Origin: a virus
Taxonomy: Duplodnaviria; Heunggongvirae; Uroviricota; Caudoviricetes
Strand: one strand, 5' to 3'
Length of the DNA: 10,789 nt
IMG/VR virus record: IMGVR_UViG_2541047124_000012
Location: 1 to 10,789 of that record
The position numbers were made by a program, and so were the translations under genes. The notes beneath the pieces are model-generated. The model was not told the origin of the DNA. It did not search any database and worked only from the letters and a program-made list of their open reading frames with translations. Numbering within the stretch: position 1 is the first letter of the stretch; every line of letters starts with the position of its first letter. Of this stretch, positions 1 to 5,690 are shown piece after piece.

Positions 1-220
1 CAGACTCCCAGGTATCTTTCAGCGTCTCCTGAACAAAAGTTTTTGCAGAATCTTTATCGGCGGTGCGAGTAACTGAAAGGCCATCGTTGCTGGTGGATTT
101 GATGATCACTTCTACATCGTCATAACGTTTACTGACACGTCGCAGCATTTCTTGTTGCAGGGCAGGAACAGAACCTTTTGGCATTTTGTTGATTTTGGCT
201 GCGGGGTATCTGTGGGGCAT
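1..220 (-). CDS. Hypothetical protein, N-terminal part only (gene continues past the window start)
   Basis: Minus-strand reading frame open to the window edge; ATG at 220..218 gives [35 protein letters not shown]...; alternative in-frame ATG about 36 nt downstream (MPKGS...). No clear Shine-Dalgarno for either start. Confidence 0.45.
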
Positions 221-397
221 ATATGGGACATAAAAAGGCCTCAAATAAACAGCAAAATCGAGATTAGGGATTTTTAGAAAAAATACAACCATCTGAAAAA
301 ACTTAGAAAACACCCAAAAACCCACAGAATAGTAAAAAACATCTATGAATTATGGATTTCAAGAGTCATTCAATCTAACTAATTGATAAATAAAAAA

Positions 398-934
398 TTA
401 ACTTTTCATCGCTTCGTTATGGGGCATGGTTGGGGCAAACTCGCTTAACTGTGTATTTAACAGCGTTACCTGCGCATTATTATTTTCTGACATCCATTTC
501 CCGTACACCTGAAACACCATTTGCGCATCTGCATGGCCCATCTGGTTTGCAATGAATGCCGGGTTAGCTCCTGCTGTTAACGACCAGCAGGCATAAGTGT
601 GTCTCGACTGATACGATTTGCGATGGCGGATTCCGGCACGCTTTACCGCTGCGTCCCACATCTGCCTTATTGAGTCAACGGTAAAATGGTCGCCATAATT
701 TTTTACTTTCGCTGACACTTCAGGTTGAAAAACAAAGGTACATTTTTGTTTCTCTGTTCTGCCGAATTCTCTGAGGTGAACATCGATGATATGCTCTTTG
801 CTCAGTCTCGTTAGTGCCATCTGACTCCGGAGAGCGTCGATTGCGGGCTTAATAAGGTGAATCACACGATTGGTTCCCGCCTGTGTTTTTGGTACTGTAA
901 AACGGTCTTTTGCCAGATTTCTTCTGATTATCAT
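398..934 (-). CDS. Tyrosine recombinase (phage integrase family), catalytic domain only
   Basis: Track ORF 398..949. Catalytic residues readable in the translation: R in GTNRVIHL, H-x-x-R in SRHTYACW, H in QMGHAD, nucleophile Y in VFQVYGKW. I place the start at ATG 934..932, which overlaps the TGA stop (933..931) of the upstream gene; the track start at 949 is a TTG. No N-terminal arm-binding or core-binding domain is present. Confidence 0.8.
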   Translation of the reverse strand: MIIRRNLAKDRFTVPKTQAGTNRVIHLIKPAIDALRSQMALTRLSKEHIIDVHLREFGRTEKQKCTFVFQPEVSAKVKNYGDHFTVDSIRQMWDAAVKRAGIRHRKSYQSRHTYACWSLTAGANPAFIANQMGHADAQMVFQVYGKWMSENNNAQVTLLNTQLSEFAPTMPHNEAMKS

Positions 935-2175
935 TCTGCCATTGCGCAAGATGGTTGCGGTTTTTCTTCATCATTTTCTTCTTCTGTTTCCTGCTTAGCA
1001 GACAGTTCGCGGTTAACTTCTTCCAGGATATCTTTTTCCGGTGTATGTCGTGCAGCAGTGAGAGTTTCCTTGCTGGGGTTCTCGTGATCAGTCTCCGTTA
1101 AGTAGGCGTTGATATACCCCTGAAGGCGTCCCGGGTAGTGATAAAACTCAGGGTGAGCGCTCCGGATAAGTGCAAAAATAGCGGCGCGGGAATAGTCCAG
1201 AATACCCGGGGTTGCGCGAAGTGCTGCGGACCATTCTTTGAACGGACTTTCTCTTTTCAGGACGATTTCTTTTGCGCGACGATAAACGCTGCCCGGAATT
1301 TCATAAATATTAAAATCCATCGGAAGTGTGGCTGCTGCAATCTCCACATCCAGCGTATCGAAGGTGTGTACTAAATTCGGATTGCGATCGGTTTTGTTCC
1401 CGCCACCGGCATTTGCACCGGAAGCCGTACGGGTGATACGCGAAACACGATTTCCTTTCATCCACTCTTTTGTCAGCAGACCCCGATCAGTGTAGTCAGC
1501 GTCCAGGTATGCCTCGAAAAAAGCAGTTATCAGTCCCAGGTCTGAATTACCGGGATTAGGGAAAACTTTGTCTGTGTCGCGTACCAGTTTGTGAAGGTCG
1601 CGAATCTCCAGCGGGTCGAGCAGCTTTGTTTTGTGAGAAATGGCCAGGGCAGTAACAGCCGGCAGTTCTTCCGCCCGTGCTATATGTAATGCCTGAAGTT
1701 CTTCCCGTGCAACGTGCGTTACCGGTTTTTCGCTGCCATGTTGCGCAAGCCAGCGAATGGGCAGTTCCTGACCGGAAATCGGCAGGAGCATATTATCCTC
1801 AATCTCAGCCATGTCTTCGCCATTGACGTTGGTATTGTCAGAGCTGGCTGGTTTGTCCTGAACTGAGGGGGAAGGCGCTATAAATATCATTGTGATGCCA
1901 TCTTCCCCGCCTTTTTCATAGCGGTTGCAGAATTCAGTATCGAACACACCTTCAGGCGGCAGGTCATTAACAATGGGCAAATTCACGCGAACAGGTTTTT
2001 TGAAATCCTCTTCGTCAAATCCAGCATCGTCCATTGCGACAACACCCCGTGATATTGCAACCGATAATTTTTTTGCTGTGCGCCAGTAAAAACCGCCTTT
2101 AATCCCAAGGCGTTTTCTGACTTTGTCATTTTTGGCTTCGTAATACAGTGCAATTTCTTCTTTATCAGTGCTCAT
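931..2175 (-). CDS. Hypothetical protein, 414 aa, translationally coupled to the downstream recombinase catalytic-domain gene
   Basis: Long uninterrupted minus-strand ORF; stop overlaps the recombinase ATG (ATGA). Acidic C-terminal tail (EEENDEEKPQPS). No motif I can assign to a family. Confidence 0.8.
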   Translation of the reverse strand: MSTDKEEIALYYEAKNDKVRKRLGIKGGFYWRTAKKLSVAISRGVVAMDDAGFDEEDFKKPVRVNLPIVNDLPPEGVFDTEFCNRYEKGGEDGITMIFIAPSPSVQDKPASSDNTNVNGEDMAEIEDNMLLPISGQELPIRWLAQHGSEKPVTHVAREELQALHIARAEELPAVTALAISHKTKLLDPLEIRDLHKLVRDTDKVFPNPGNSDLGLITAFFEAYLDADYTDRGLLTKEWMKGNRVSRITRTASGANAGGGNKTDRNPNLVHTFDTLDVEIAAATLPMDFNIYEIPGSVYRRAKEIVLKRESPFKEWSAALRATPGILDYSRAAIFALIRSAHPEFYHYPGRLQGYINAYLTETDHENPSKETLTAARHTPEKDILEEVNRELSAKQETEEENDEEKPQPSCAMAE

Positions 2176-2267
2176 TGATAAACCTCATAACTATTTTAAG
2201 GTTGTACGAATCCCTGCCATTGCTGGCATGCTTAATCAACGGGTATGGCGTTAATACGGCTGGCGGG

Positions 2268-2456
2268 TTATCCAGCCGGTATTTCGTTATTCAGGTACAG
2301 CGATACTTTGTTTAACGGGAGACATTCACCGGAAATTTTTTGCTCGTCTCTTGCCTGATGGCAGGATTCTTTACTGGCATAAATTCCGGTAATCACATTC
2401 TGTGGCTCACCTGTTATAAGAAAAACCGTCATCATCAGTGCAAATGCTGAAGTCAT
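2268..2456 (-). CDS. Small protein, 62 aa, with hydrophobic N-terminal segment (signal peptide or single transmembrane helix) and two Cys
   Basis: Track ORF; ATG 2456..2454 overlaps the TGA stop of the upstream ORF (ATGA). N-terminus MTSAFALMMTVFLITG is hydrophobic. AT-rich. Confidence 0.5.
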   Translation of the reverse strand: MTSAFALMMTVFLITGEPQNVITGIYASKESCHQARDEQKISGECLPLNKVSLYLNNEIPAG

Positions 2457-2641
2457 TGACGTTCTCCGAAAATACCAAGTTCAAGAAGGGCAATTCGGGA
2501 AAGTATGGAATTATCATTGAGCAGATAAGGCTCATATTTCCTCATATTAATGGCATCTTCAGTAAACTCCCGGTTACTGAGCAGAACACCAATATCAAAA
2601 CAACCTTCAGACGTATTAACGTTTGGTAATAACGTTTCCAT
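2453..2641 (-). CDS. Small hypothetical protein, 62 aa, first gene of a two-gene overlapping pair
   Basis: Track ORF; ATG at 2641..2639 preceded on the minus strand by GAGGA with 7-nt spacing; stop overlaps the start of ORF 2268..2456. Confidence 0.55.
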   Translation of the reverse strand: METLLPNVNTSEGCFDIGVLLSNREFTEDAINMRKYEPYLLNDNSILSRIALLELGIFGERQ

Positions 2642-2825
2642 TATCGCGTCCTCAACAATGAATTTTGTGATGCAGTGCCTGGTGCCTCCAGGTGACGTTA
2701 ACCAGTTAACAATTAACGTCGGGTTAGTTGATGCTCGTTACGCCAGTAAAAGACCGCCTTACTGCTTTAACTGTTCCGCGTGCGCATAGCCGCATTCACC
2801 GCATCACAAAATTCACTTTAAAAAG

Positions 2826-2845
2826 GGCGGATATCCATTTCCGCC
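2826..2845 (-). terminator. Candidate minus-strand intrinsic terminator
   Basis: Hairpin GGCGGA / loop TATCCATT / TCCGCC; on the minus strand it is followed by CTTTTTAAAG. Lies inside the 553-bp spacer with no ORF upstream of it on that strand. Confidence 0.3.
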
Positions 2846-3194
2846 GAATCACCAGAAAAGTGATAACAGAGGTTGTTGTGGCTGGGGTGTCACTTAAGCG
2901 TATGGTCAACCTGACAACCCGGTGTCCTCAACGGGGGAAGGAATAACCCCGCCATACTTACCGCCGCGCCATTTCGCGGATTGCCACAACCGGAAGCGCA
3001 CGGTCGAATTAAATTTAACGACGGCTCTAAGGGAGAAGGACTTCGCCGTGCACTTTCGTGTTATGCCCTGACTTTTCAGGGATATATCCTTTCAGTAAAC
3101 TGTCAGTGCCGGATTCTTATCTGTGTCCGGCGCACGACCACACGTAGCAGCGTGTTGGTCTCCATTTTTAATTCAGCCCTTAATGGAGGATAAA

Positions 3195-3380
3195 ATGCCA
3201 AACAAACCATGCCCTGCCTGTAACGCTCTTTCTGGCTTTTTAGAGAAGGGCGGTTATTACATTTTTAACTGTCCAGAACATGTTGAATTTCATATATCAA
3301 AACTTGACAGTATCATTACAAAGCCAAATCAGTATCAGTCTGATTTACTGAATAAAGAGTTAAACGCCGCCCGAGATTAA
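3195..3380 (+). CDS. Small putative zinc-ribbon protein, 61 aa (C-x2-C ... C-x2-H)
   Basis: Internal start of track ORF 3123..3380: ATG 3195 is preceded by GGAGGA (3185..3190). Translation MPNKPCPACNALSGFLEKGGYYIFNCPEHVEFH... contains CPAC and CPEH. AT-rich. Confidence 0.5.
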   Translation: MPNKPCPACNALSGFLEKGGYYIFNCPEHVEFHISKLDSIITKPNQYQSDLLNKELNAARD

Positions 3381-3566
3381 GGGCGTAGTGGCCCATTAAA
3401 AATATTGCAAAGACCAACTATTGTTGAACTGGATTAAACCAGTAATTCTCTATTGCTCTTATTGTTACCATCGGATGATTGCCGGGGGTTATTTTAAGTT
3501 CGGGAGGAAAAGGCTCTCCATCAGCAGCCATCATTGAGTATGTGAAATCCGCCGACGCAGTCCCTT

Positions 3567-3956
3567 TCATGATAATTCCGAATTTTTCAAGTAATGAGAG
3601 CAGTTCCGGTAATCCTGTGTCATCTGAATAACTTTCCTCATAGAAAGAAGCGATTGCCGCAGGAGATGACAGTTCTCGCTCTGCAATTTTTTTGTAGTTT
3701 TCCAGAATTCTTTTTTTGAATACTTTTCCTCGACATGAAAACCCATCACCGAGGCAATCCGCTTTGCAGTTTCTTCAGTATTCTGGTTGTTTGTTACCGA
3801 AACAGAGTACAATCCGGTAAACGCATCGCGCACATTACGAGCCATATTATCAATGTATTTCTTCGTTGCAGATTCTAATTCAACTTCGTTCAGACGTTGG
3901 TGAAGTGCATGTGCTGCAATTTCCTGGATTTCTTTTAGTAAATCTTTAAATTCCAT
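3567..3956 (-). CDS. Hypothetical protein, 129 aa, in the leftward operon downstream of the repressor
   Basis: Track ORF; ATG 3956..3954 preceded by GGAG 8 nt upstream on the minus strand. Contains two A7 homopolymer tracts in the coding strand (plus-strand T7 at 3677..3683 and 3711..3717). Confidence 0.65.
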   Translation of the reverse strand: MEFKDLLKEIQEIAAHALHQRLNEVELESATKKYIDNMARNVRDAFTGLYSVSVTNNQNTEETAKRIASVMGFHVEEKYSKKEFWKTTKKLQSENCHLLRQSLLSMRKVIQMTQDYRNCSHYLKNSELS

Positions 3957-3967
3957 CTTTAACTCCG

Positions 3968-4096
3968 TTAGTCGTTAGATTTTGCCGAACTGGAAAGCGC
4001 CTGTTTAAACTCACTGAAGCTGAGAGCTTCCTCGCCTTCGGCAAGGCCTTCGAAGTATTCTTCGTAAGCCTTTTCCATGATTGTGTCGAAATCCAT
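3968..4096 (-). CDS. Small acidic hypothetical protein, 42 aa
   Basis: Hand translation MDFDTIMEKAYEEYFEGLAEGEEALSFSEFKQALSSSAKSND; ATG 4096..4094 lies 1 nt after the stop of the upstream ORF and is preceded by AGGTGA. Below the size cut-off of the ORF track. Confidence 0.4.
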   Translation of the reverse strand: MDFDTIMEKAYEEYFEGLAEGEEALSFSEFKQALSSSAKSND

Positions 4097-4097
4097 A

Positions 4098-4253
4098 TCA
4101 CTCACCTGAGTTTCTTTCCAGCCAGCGACGGGCACCATTTTCGGTTTTAAACGTTTTGCTTTTGGTATACGTCATCGCGGTGAACGTGCCGTCCTGGTTG
4201 GGGAACACGCCACATACCAGAGATTCGCTGTTGCCAAGATCGATAGTATCCAT
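4098..4253 (-). CDS. Small hypothetical protein, 51 aa if started at ATG 4253 (the track ORF extends to a TTG at 4358, 86 aa)
   Basis: Track ORF 4098..4358 begins at TTG with no SD. The in-frame ATG at 4253..4251 has a GAGG 5 nt upstream on the minus strand, so I prefer the shorter form. Confidence 0.5.
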   Translation of the reverse strand: MDTIDLGNSESLVCGVFPNQDGTFTAMTYTKSKTFKTENGARRWLERNSGE

Positions 4254-4368
4254 GCTGACCTCATTTCCCCTTAACGCCGGGTAGCGGAACTGTTTGCTGA
4301 GAACACCGTGCGGTGTCTTGATGGGTGGTAATTTAGTTTTCTCATGAATGTTGGTCAAGTATTTTTAA

Positions 4369-4381
4369 TGAGAAAGCTCAA
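4369..4381. promoter_or_regulatory. Operator-like site TGAGAAAGCTCAA (left copy), between repressor stop and the leftward operon
   Basis: 12 of 13 identical to TGAGAAAACTCAA at 4902..4914; imperfect palindrome TGAG-N5-CTCA; flanked by repeated TTTAATG (4364..4370 and 4384..4390). Confidence 0.4.
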
Positions 4382-4442
4382 TATTTAATGCAAAATAAAG
4401 CCAATACATTGAAATGTAAGGCTTTAAAATTTGTGAAGGGGG

Positions 4443-4850
4443 TTACTGATGTTTGTTACGTTTGCGAGCTTCTAGTAGCTCGGTGAATAGGCGATTAAAA
4501 TTCTCAACGCGGGCACGGAGTTCGCTGATTTGTGCTTGCTGCTCTGATTTTGGAAGTGCGCGATACAATCGCAACATCTCCAACTCATCTTCCGATAAGT
4601 CTAAGGCGCTGTTGAGTGCAACTGGTGGATCTGGTGTTTTATCCTCGTCACCAAACAGTATCCAAGTTGGTGAACATTGCAATACCTCAGCCAGGCGATG
4701 CAAATTTTGCCCGCGCGGGGCTGTATGGTCGCTTTCCCATAGTGAAATTGATGAGCCAGATACGCCAGCGGCTTTGCTTAAATCGTTTTGACTTAAACCA
4801 ACCTGTTTGCGTCTTTCTCTAATTCGTTGACCTAAAGTTTTCTCGTTCAT
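4443..4850 (-). CDS. CI-like prophage repressor, XRE-family HTH, 135 aa, without a LexA/S24-type peptidase domain
   Basis: Track ORF; N-terminal HTH (LGQRIRERRKQVGLSQNDLSKAAGVSGSSISLWE) and a helical C-terminal region; divergent from the Cro-like gene. ATG follows the switch region with almost no leader. Confidence 0.85.
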   Translation of the reverse strand: MNEKTLGQRIRERRKQVGLSQNDLSKAAGVSGSSISLWESDHTAPRGQNLHRLAEVLQCSPTWILFGDEDKTPDPPVALNSALDLSEDELEMLRLYRALPKSEQQAQISELRARVENFNRLFTELLEARKRNKHQ

Positions 4851-4871
4851 ATTTAGATATCTTAATCACCC

Positions 4872-4914
4872 TTGACTTGAGATTCCTTGAGTGATTACTA
4901 TTGAGAAAACTCAA
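4872..4914 (+). promoter_or_regulatory. Candidate rightward promoter (pR-like) with overlapping operator-like palindrome
   Basis: -35 TTGACT (4872..4877), 18-bp spacer, -10 TACTAT (4896..4901), then TGAGAAAACTCAA (4902..4914) containing the perfect inverted repeat TTGAG-AAAA-CTCAA. Confidence 0.45.
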
Positions 4915-4927
4915 CTTTGGAGGGGTG

Positions 4928-5155
4928 ATGTTTAAATCAGACGTAATTAATTTTTATGGGACGAAAGCCAAAGTAGCGAAAGCTGCTGGTGTTGATCCAT
5001 CTGCTGTTTCTCAATGGGGGGAACTGGTTCCTGAAGGTCGCGCGATGCGCCTGCAAGAGGCATCCGGCGGGGAACTTCAGTACGACCCCAAAGTTTATGA
5101 CGAATATCGTAAGGCAAAGCGGGCGGGGCGGTTGAACAATGAAAATCACCACTGA
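4928..5155 (+). CDS. Cro/YdaS-like small HTH regulator
   Basis: In-frame ATG 4928 preceded by GGAGG (4919..4923); the track ORF starts at TTG 4901. Segment AKAAGVDPSAVSQW resembles the Cro/YdaS family pattern as I recall it. Divergent from the repressor. Confidence 0.75.
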   Translation: MFKSDVINFYGTKAKVAKAAGVDPSAVSQWGELVPEGRAMRLQEASGGELQYDPKVYDEYRKAKRAGRLNNENHH

Positions 5156-5690
5156 ACAGGTTTGTGAGGCTCTGGATACCTGGGTATGCCGACCAGGAAT
5201 GACACAGGAGCAGGCGACGATATTAATCACGGAAGCATTCTGGGCTCTGAAAGAACGCCCGAACATCGATGTTCAACGCATCACGTTTAATGATGGCGAG
5301 GTTGATCAACGGGCACTGGGCGTTAACCGGGTGAAGATATTCGAACGCTGGAAAGCTATCGACACCAGAGATAAGCGGAACAAATTCACGGCGCTGATTC
5401 CGGCAATTATGGAGGCTATCCGGATCAGCGATTTCAGATTGTATTGTGAGATCAGTGATGGAAAAAGCATTACGTACATGATCGCCGGATTAAACAAAGA
5501 ATATGGCGATGTGGTGGAGTCCGGGCTGCTTTTTGCGGATCCAGTTGTTGTGGAACGTGAGACTGACGAGCTTATAGAAAAAGCTATTGCTTTCAAGCAT
5601 GCGTATCGTCAGCAGTATCAATATTACTTTGCAGATAAACAAATATCTGCCTGGGGGGCGTATGAGTATCGATGCACTACGATGGGCTAA
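5139..5690 (+). CDS. YdaT/CII-like protein, 183 aa
   Basis: Track ORF; start overlaps the end of the Cro-like gene by 17 nt. Position and general features match the YdaT/CII-like gene that follows Cro in Rac-like prophages. Confidence 0.7.
   Translation: MKITTEQVCEALDTWVCRPGMTQEQATILITEAFWALKERPNIDVQRITFNDGEVDQRALGVNRVKIFERWKAIDTRDKRNKFTALIPAIMEAIRISDFRLYCEISDGKSITYMIAGLNKEYGDVVESGLLFADPVVVERETDELIEKAIAFKHAYRQQYQYYFADKQISAWGAYEYRCTTMG

Follow-up and report, generated by a model that had tools for sequence, protein, structure and literature searches.

Does a short sequence repeated on both sides of a prophage repressor gene represent the operator of that repressor? The question is raised by the immunity region of a 10,789-nucleotide (nt) stretch of viral DNA (IMG/VR record IMGVR_UViG_2541047124_000012, positions 1–10,789; the window, below), which is a lambdoid Qin-like prophage found in Escherichia coli O157:H7 and relatives. 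An earlier note on this DNA had described a motif of 13 base pairs (bp) on either side of the repressor gene. It proposed that one repressor acts at both places, in the geometry of the right and left operators (OR and OL) of phage lambda, and controls both divergent early operons. Position, homology, co-variation and a phylogenetic footprint support this proposal. The motif is very probably the operator of a predicted DicA-type repressor with a P22 C2-like DNA-binding domain.

The two 13-mers, TGAGAAAGCTCAA at positions 4369–4381 and TGAGAAAACTCAA at positions 4902–4914, are located where they had been placed and match at 12 of 13 positions. One further base makes the right copy a perfect dyad, TTGAG-AAAA-CTCAA (positions 4901–4914). 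The only mismatch between the two copies is the G at 4376, within the central 4 bp of the dyad, which are presumably not contacted; this G is a minority allele, most related loci having A. A third copy, TGAGAAAACTAAA, is on the minus strand at positions 4332–4344 and had been overlooked. Two copies do flank the repressor gene as was claimed, but the count is three, and the third (OL1) overlaps the core of the leftward promoter (PL). The motif itself is real, but it is a 14-bp dyad inside an 18-bp site of the P22 type rather than a 13-bp unit. The window has 3 matches to TGAGAAAACTCAA with one mismatch or none, compared with 0.02 expected, and 3 matches were reached in 0 of 200 shuffles. The sites, the promoter-like sequences next to them (PL and the rightward promoter, PR) and the two regulatory genes, whose proteins are given in amino acids (aa), are as follows.

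4901–4914 (18-bp frame 4899–4916): OR1, TTGAG-AAAA-CTCAA; overlaps the final base of the PR -10 and takes in the inferred Cro start
4368–4381 (18-bp frame 4366–4383): OL2, ATGAG-AAAG-CTCAA; about 9 bp upstream of the PL -35; the left copy of the earlier note
4332–4345 (18-bp frame 4330–4347): OL1, ATGAG-AAAA-CTAAA in the minus-strand reading; overlaps the PL -10 hexamer
4872–4901, plus strand: PR, promoter-like; -35 TTGACT at 4872–4877, 18-nt spacer, -10 TACTAT at 4896–4901; upstream of the Cro-like gene
4330–4358, minus strand: PL, promoter-like; -35 TTGACC at 4358–4353, 17-nt spacer, -10 TAAATT at 4335–4330; inferred start at about 4322; leads into the leftward ydfA-like operon
4443–4850, minus strand: repressor, 135 aa; DicA-type, P22 C2-like helix-turn-helix (HTH) N-terminal domain and short conserved C-terminal domain
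4928–5155, plus strand: Cro-like regulator, 75 aa, DicC homologue; ATG at 4928 after a GGAGG Shine-Dalgarno sequence

In a 7-4-7 frame the 18-bp sites are TATTGAG-AAAA-CTCAACT (OR1), TAATGAG-AAAG-CTCAATA (OL2) and AATTTAG-TTTT-CTCATGA (OL1), and the half-site consensus across the three is nnwTGAG. The centres of OL1 and OL2 are 36 bp apart, and the central A-tract of OL1 is inverted relative to those of OL2 and OR1. The OL1 half-site CTAAA departs from CTCAA because it is part of the PL -10 hexamer. A fourth motif-like sequence, CGAGAAAACTTTA (positions 4834–4847, repressor codons 2–6), is not considered an operator because it is missing from Buttiauxella relatives that retain all three operators; it is probably a by-product of coding.

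A consensus scan of positions 4100–5100 reveals exactly two promoter-like sites, PR and PL, and all three operator copies overlap or abut them. The right copy does lie over the predicted start of the Cro-like transcript, as OR1 begins with the final base of the PR -10 and includes the inferred start at about 4908. The left copy is between the repressor stop codon and the leftward operon, as had been described, but this copy (OL2) lies upstream of the PL -35 and it is OL1 that covers the PL -10. Among relatives the PR -10 varies at its third and fourth positions only, the two least critical ones. PL aligns with dicBp of E. coli K-12, and the -35 is kept.

Region 4250–5160 is covered to at least 80% in 797 of 5,426 complete E. 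coli genomes, and the best-matching records, at 99.8–99.9% identity, include O157:H7, O145 and O103 strains. An entropy profile was obtained from all 117 loci of the immunity type of this window (type A, below), which comprise 62 PL haplotypes and 31 PR haplotypes. Mean column entropy is 0.057 for OL1, 0.111 for OL2 and 0.054 for OR1, compared with 0.364 for the whole PL region; in the short stretches that separate operators from hexamers it reaches roughly 1.8 bits. Per-site pairwise diversity, calculated for the 74 of 115 loci that match a rigid regular expression for the PL layout, is 0.007 for OL1 together with the -10, 0.024 for OL2 and 0.005 for the -35. The comparable values are 0.091 for repressor third codon positions and 0.19–0.26 for the spacers. 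All three sites persist in Buttiauxella despite a repressor identity of 75–76% and diverged flanks. Phage HannyBb is an isolated Escherichia phage with a complete 45-kb genome and a 96% identical repressor. It has the motif (with one mismatch or none) exactly 3 times, where 0.06 are expected, and the three copies lie in the immunity region, arranged as in the window. The motif is thus kept in homologous immunity regions, i.e., in the 117 type-A loci, in Buttiauxella and in HannyBb.

The PL spacers at 4346–4352, 4359–4367 and 4324–4329 are hypervariable among relatives with 99–100% identical repressors. This was considered as an anomaly and rejected, since their diversity is just 2–3 times that of third codon positions; it probably represents unconstrained sequence plus recombination.

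The repressor has Pfam matches to HTH families only (HTH_3, E = 1.2e-16) and no detectable peptidase S24 autocleavage domain. It shows 56% identity to K-12 DicA over 128 aa, with a diverged HTH and a well conserved C-terminal half. Residues 1–72 give an ungapped alignment to the P22 C2 DNA-binding domain (PDB 1adr/2r1j, E = 2e-15). The recognition helix is GVSGSSISLWES, and residues 44 and 46 are A and R, compared with E and N in the P22 repressor. The Cro-like protein matches Pfam P22_Cro (E = 1.1e-17) and the P22 Cro structure 1rzs (E = 1.9e-12), and has 71% identity to K-12 DicC. Alignment with DicA and P22 C2 indicates that the start of the 135-aa repressor is the real one. Its ATG is not preceded by a Shine-Dalgarno sequence, and the repressor mRNA may therefore be nearly leaderless. 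In phage HannyBb (L211 2450–2908) and in loci L003 and L004 the repressor is annotated or readable as 152 aa, from an upstream ATG within the OR region.

The comparison of heteroimmune relatives, which the earlier note had put forward as a check, is informative. Related loci, about 210 from viral contigs and from contigs of one genome per species, were sorted together with another O157:H7 module into four immunity types by the recognition helix of the repressor.

Type A: this window; 117 loci including Buttiauxella (75–76% protein identity); helix GVSGSSISLWES; OR1 TTGAGTTTTCTCAA; dyad TTGAG-N4-CTCAA
Type B: K-12 DicA and Citrobacter sp.; helix ISHVSVSQWER; OR1 TTGTTAGTCATAACTAACAA; dyad GTTAG-N6-CTAAC
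Type C: Citrobacter braakii and viral contigs; helix ISHATISLWES; OR1 TTGTTGAGTTTATTTAACAA; dyad TTGTTGAG...AACAA
Type D: the O157:H7 'DicA' of PMC6915034; helix VAHVTISQWER; OR1 CCTTAGATTTTCCTAAGG; dyad CCTTAG-N6-CTAAGG

The dyads have the same offsets in all types, and the PR -35 is retained throughout as TTGACT/C. The repressor helix differs between types at P22 positions 32–34 and 37, and the HTH of the Cro/DicC protein changes in step with the operator type. From type to type the dyad changes in concert with the helices of both regulators, but it keeps its positions. An unbiased shared-word search compared 100 bp of sequence upstream of the repressor gene with 140 bp downstream of it and determined the longest common word, which in types A, B and C is the operator of the type concerned. 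In type D it is the half-site beside the PR -35; the type-D dyad, together with its copies on the PL side, was identified by direct reading of the same positions. All four types have two PL-side sites, 35–36 bp apart and flanking the -35, which start 25 bp upstream and 10–11 bp downstream of the -35 start. By its primer sequences, the published study of O157:H7 'DicA/DicC' (PMC6915034) concerns type D and not the type of this window. The chromosome of O157:H7 strain TR01 carries a type-A module as well as a heteroimmune type-D DicA/DicC module (L213, NZ_CP033605.1 1685190–1687639).

With a DicA-like repressor that has no S24 domain, a divergent gene of the DicC/P22-Cro family and the same dyad at both promoters, the region is a DicA/DicC-type module. 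Lambda had been used as the reference and its geometry holds, but the proper references are DicA/DicC of Qin and immC of P22, as there is no autocleavage domain and there is a Rem homologue. The comparison with Qin, a cryptic prophage of E. coli K-12, involves the following flanking features.

4098–4253, minus strand: YdfA-like DUF1391 protein (Pfam DUF1391, E = 9.4e-28), first gene of the leftward operon
4391–4433, minus strand: terminator-like hairpin followed by AUUUUG, directly after the repressor stop codon and before OL2
5139–5690, plus strand: YdaT-family protein (Pfam YdaT_toxin, E = 3.8e-5), second rightward gene, in the CII position
10251–10511, plus strand: Rem homologue, 86 aa, putative antirepressor; 73% identical to Rem of K-12; follows hok closely, as it does in Qin

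The order of ydfA operon, PL-type promoter, 135-aa repressor, divergent Cro-like gene and YdaT-like gene is the same as in Qin. Also the same are the operator over the PR -10, the two operators 35–36 bp apart that flank the PL -35, and the Rem homologue beside hok. When the PR regions are anchored on the shared -35 TTGACT, OR1 and the K-12 operator Oc coincide in position; it was this anchoring that gave the correspondence, an automatic MAFFT alignment of the two regions being uninformative. PL and dicBp are nearly identical through the ydfA leader, and the YdfA-like gene and its leader are near-identical to K-12 ydfA and its leader. The slots that flank the -35 have TGAG...CTCA here and GTTAG...CTAA-type sequences in K-12, and a type-B probe has 8–9 mismatches in 18 positions to the PL region of the window. 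The K-12 DicA specificity, TTGTTAG-N6-CTAACAA with helix ISHVSVSQWER, is not found here, where the operator is TTGAG-AAAA-CTCAA and the helix is GVSGSSISLWES. Because of these differences in helix and operator, the window and K-12 Qin are predicted to be heteroimmune.

The K-12 system has been characterized in vivo. DicA binds Oc (TTGTTAGTCATAACTAACAA), which overlaps the dicC -10, and a single base change abolishes binding; repression at Oc needs dicA and is restored by plasmid-encoded DicA, and DicA at Oc also activates dicA (PMC3441716). DicA represses dicBp, the PL equivalent upstream of ydfA, which is derepressed by deletion of dicA and not by deletion of dicC (PMC10448788). DicA and DicC act as a bistable switch, and the antirepressor Rem relieves the repression, with a 165-fold derepression of dicBp by Rem in K-12 (PMC10448788).

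The likeness to P22 immC consists of the C2-like N-terminal domain, the P22 Cro match and an 18-bp dyad whose A/T-rich centre fits the P22 frame. The P22 consensus half-site is ATTTAAG, from which nnTTGAG here differs mainly at one core base. The P22 repressor binds its 18-bp site as a dimer with contacts at positions 2–7 and 12–17, positions 8–11 are uncontacted, and A-tract centres are bound best and G/C-containing centres worse (PMC4267663). P22 C2 is 216 aa in length, compared with 135 aa here without S24, and OL here has two clear sites, not three. With lambda the region has in common a repressor gene between leftward and rightward early promoters, the same operator at both, a divergent cro gene and the bistable logic. 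Lambda differs in its 17-bp sites, in the fold subclass of its repressor and in a RecA-cleavable C-terminal domain, which the repressor here does not have. Lambda has three adjacent sites per region, of graded affinity and cooperatively bound by its repressor; OL here has two clear sites, and OR has one strong site plus elements at the OR2 and OR3 positions. As in Gifsy prophages and in the Qin DicA/Rem system, the repressor is short and has no cleavage domain, and a predicted Rem homologue is in the same prophage.

The elements at the OR2 and OR3 positions are weaker candidates for operators.

4876–4891: candidate weak OR2, CTTGAG-ATTC-CTTGAG, in form a direct repeat, not a good dyad; overlaps the -35 and the spacer of PR
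4851–4866: OR3-position palindrome, ATTTAGATATCTTAAT, near-perfect; abuts the repressor start codon

Half-sites with the word TTGAG had been reported at 4878 and 4888. They are present, but these coordinates mark the TGAG part of words at 4877–4881 and 4887–4891, and they are no more than tentative candidates for an OR2-like site. Isolated TTGAG half-sites are not significant alone, because the 5-mer is expected about 20 times in the window. The candidate OR2, centred 24 bp from the centre of OR1, shows fair conservation (entropy 0.126), which may reflect the promoter, since the element overlaps the PR -35 and spacer. In Buttiauxella the half-site beside the -35 retains the TGAG core (TTGAG to CTGAG) and the other half-site is changed to TTGCG. 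In type D the same slot has a type-D-like dyad, CTTAGG-TTTC-TCTACG.

The ATTTAGATATCTTAAT palindrome has half-sites TTTAG and TTAAG, each one base from TTGAG. With an entropy of 0.013 it surpasses every other element of the PR region in conservation; it is almost invariant in the 117 loci, and the heteroimmune types A and C have nearly the same sequence there. Types B and D have half-sites of their own at the OR3 position, TTAGC-ATTA-GCTAA in K-12 ('Oa') and ATTAGA-ATTA-CCTAAT in type D. The centres along OR are 24 and 25 bp apart, and at the OR2 and OR3 positions both conservation and co-variation across types are partial. The palindrome may serve as an OR3-like site, belong to the repressor promoter, or do both.

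Several observations weigh against the motif being the repressor operator. Neither of the K-12 counterparts of the two weaker elements, 'Om' and 'Oa', is bound by DicA in vivo when it is the only site (PMC3441716); the OR2- and OR3-position elements here are therefore possible sites only and may not be operators. The consensus scan of positions 4100–5100 found no promoter for the repressor gene, so autoregulation cannot be positioned; the same is reported for K-12 dicA (PMC3441716). A cross-type matrix of 18-mer probes has its best values on the diagonal in types A and B, shows partial overlap of types A and C and has a weak diagonal for type D. It is only partly diagonal because the outer positions are unconserved and types A and C have the TTGAG half-site in common. 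The motif string is absent from the searchable literature, where a string search gave unrelated human, fish and viral primer matches only. Finally, co-variation cannot separate repressor binding from Cro binding, as both proteins change with the motif.

This last point is the basis of an alternative in which the sites are bound by the Cro/DicC-like protein only and the repressor acts elsewhere or through other sequences. The HTH of the Cro-like protein does co-vary with the motif, and sequence alone cannot assign the sites to either protein. This alternative is nevertheless improbable. The repressor helix is itself type-specific at P22 positions 32–34 and 37, and in both P22 and lambda the repressor and Cro use common operators. 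Moreover, in K-12 the repression at Oc is dicA-dependent and restored by plasmid DicA (PMC3441716), and dicBp responds to the loss of dicA and not of dicC (PMC10448788).

The repeats might instead be promoter-associated sequence (duplicated context, or sites for RNA polymerase or a host factor) that is kept for promoter function. Every copy touches promoter-like hexamers, and the outer half-site of OL1 lies in the PL -10 (TAAATT). This is considered quite improbable as well, since the copies have three different placements (after a -10, over a -10 and upstream of a -35) and both orientations, and the dyads change with the HTH, the -35 hexamers being common to all types. A site for a host factor would show no co-variation with a phage protein.

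It is very improbable that the motif represents an RNA hairpin, with a 5-bp stem and a 4-nt loop, in the leader of the Cro-like mRNA. The inferred PR transcript does have OR1, a perfect inverted repeat, at its 5' end. However, OL2 is probably untranscribed, because it is located beyond the terminator hairpin of the repressor gene and ahead of the PL -35. In addition, the stem of OL1 is imperfect (CTAAA), a 5-bp A/U-rich stem is weak, and the sequence of the central AAAA is conserved, which is not needed in a loop. A chance likeness of two AT-rich 13-mers is scarcely credible, in spite of the AT-rich region and the common occurrence of isolated TTGAG words, and is already refuted by the match count in the window and its shuffles and by conservation in 117 loci, another genus and HannyBb.

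With the motif taken as the repressor operator, a switch can be proposed. Each site of about 18 bp would be bound by one repressor dimer, with the outer half-sites nnwTGAG contacted and the central AAAA not. Since OR1 extends from the end of the -10 over the transcription start of the Cro-like gene, repressor bound there would block RNA polymerase at PR. Repressor at OL1, on the PL -10, and at OL2, upstream of the -35, would turn off the leftward ydfA-like operon. The Cro/DicC-like protein most likely acts on the same sites and would shut off the repressor gene, which would produce a bistable switch; the weaker OR2- and OR3-position sites may tune PR and the repressor's own promoter. The Rem-like antirepressor, which is encoded 5.4 kb rightward, probably flips the switch, rather than RecA-stimulated cleavage. 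This route is considered likely because the repressor has no cleavage domain and there is a 73%-identical Rem homologue, as in Qin.

The hairpin at 4391–4433 is likely a terminator that sets the repressor transcript apart from OL and PL. Its RNA fold has an energy of -12.3 kcal/mol (z = -3.7; 0 of 200 shuffles were equally stable), and it is kept among relatives with an entropy of 0.10. A simple terminator scan missed this hairpin, probably because the stem is interrupted and encloses more than the 8-nt loop limit of the scan. A second hairpin, at positions 4300–4318 on the minus strand, has a 6-bp stem and a 4-nt loop and is a few nt into the inferred PL transcript. Its sequence, ACACCGCACGGTGT, is common to types A, B and D; type C and some Citrobacter and Buttiauxella loci have another inverted repeat, AATCACACGCAGTGATT, in the same place. 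The fold of the whole PL leader is no more stable than those of shuffles.

Rightward, the Cro-like and YdaT-like genes are followed by O-like and P-like replication genes. The counterpart of the YdaT-family protein in phage HannyBb is annotated as 'CII-like transcriptional activator'. Positions 9731–10033 (plus strand) contain a type I toxin-antitoxin locus, hok/sok, with a sok RNA match of 103.9 bits (Rfam, 9731–9880) and a HokD-like open reading frame (ORF) at 9821–10033. On the minus strand, an integrase ORF (398–949) encodes 183 aa and an exonuclease VIII-domain ORF (931–2175) encodes 414 aa; the counterparts of these genes in O157:H7 TW14359 are 1131 nt and 2445 nt. Because both ORFs are short, the left arm of the prophage looks truncated or rearranged; the immunity region is intact.

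A broader proposal joins these observations, but it is speculative and more likely wrong than right. DicA-family modules would constitute a natural 'specificity-swap' series on a rigid promoter/operator scaffold, with at least four types, two of them co-resident in single O157:H7 chromosomes. Type A recognition may occur partly by shape readout of the invariant A-tract centre via Arg46, which replaces the Asn46 that the P22 repressor needs for non-A-tract centres. The palindrome at 4851–4866 could be a low-affinity site common to types A and C, through which prophages that are otherwise heteroimmune would cross-talk at the promoter of the repressor itself.

The proposed operator of this immunity type has a sequence that is absent from the searchable literature. 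The kind of switch itself is well known, and the understanding of how such switches work is unchanged. What is added is a concrete operator sequence, with three exact sites, assigned to a very common immunity type. Type A is carried by at least 797 of 5,426 complete E. coli genomes, including O157:H7, and by at least one isolated phage. DicA/DicC modules govern cell-division inhibitors of the dicB/dicF type along with other genes of the prophage, and a single pathogen genome contains several heteroimmune copies. The pairing of repressor and operator is needed to interpret cross-regulation between prophages, e.g., the published O157:H7 'DicA/DicC' represents a different immunity type. The series of four types is a ready data set on the evolution of helix-turn-helix specificity.

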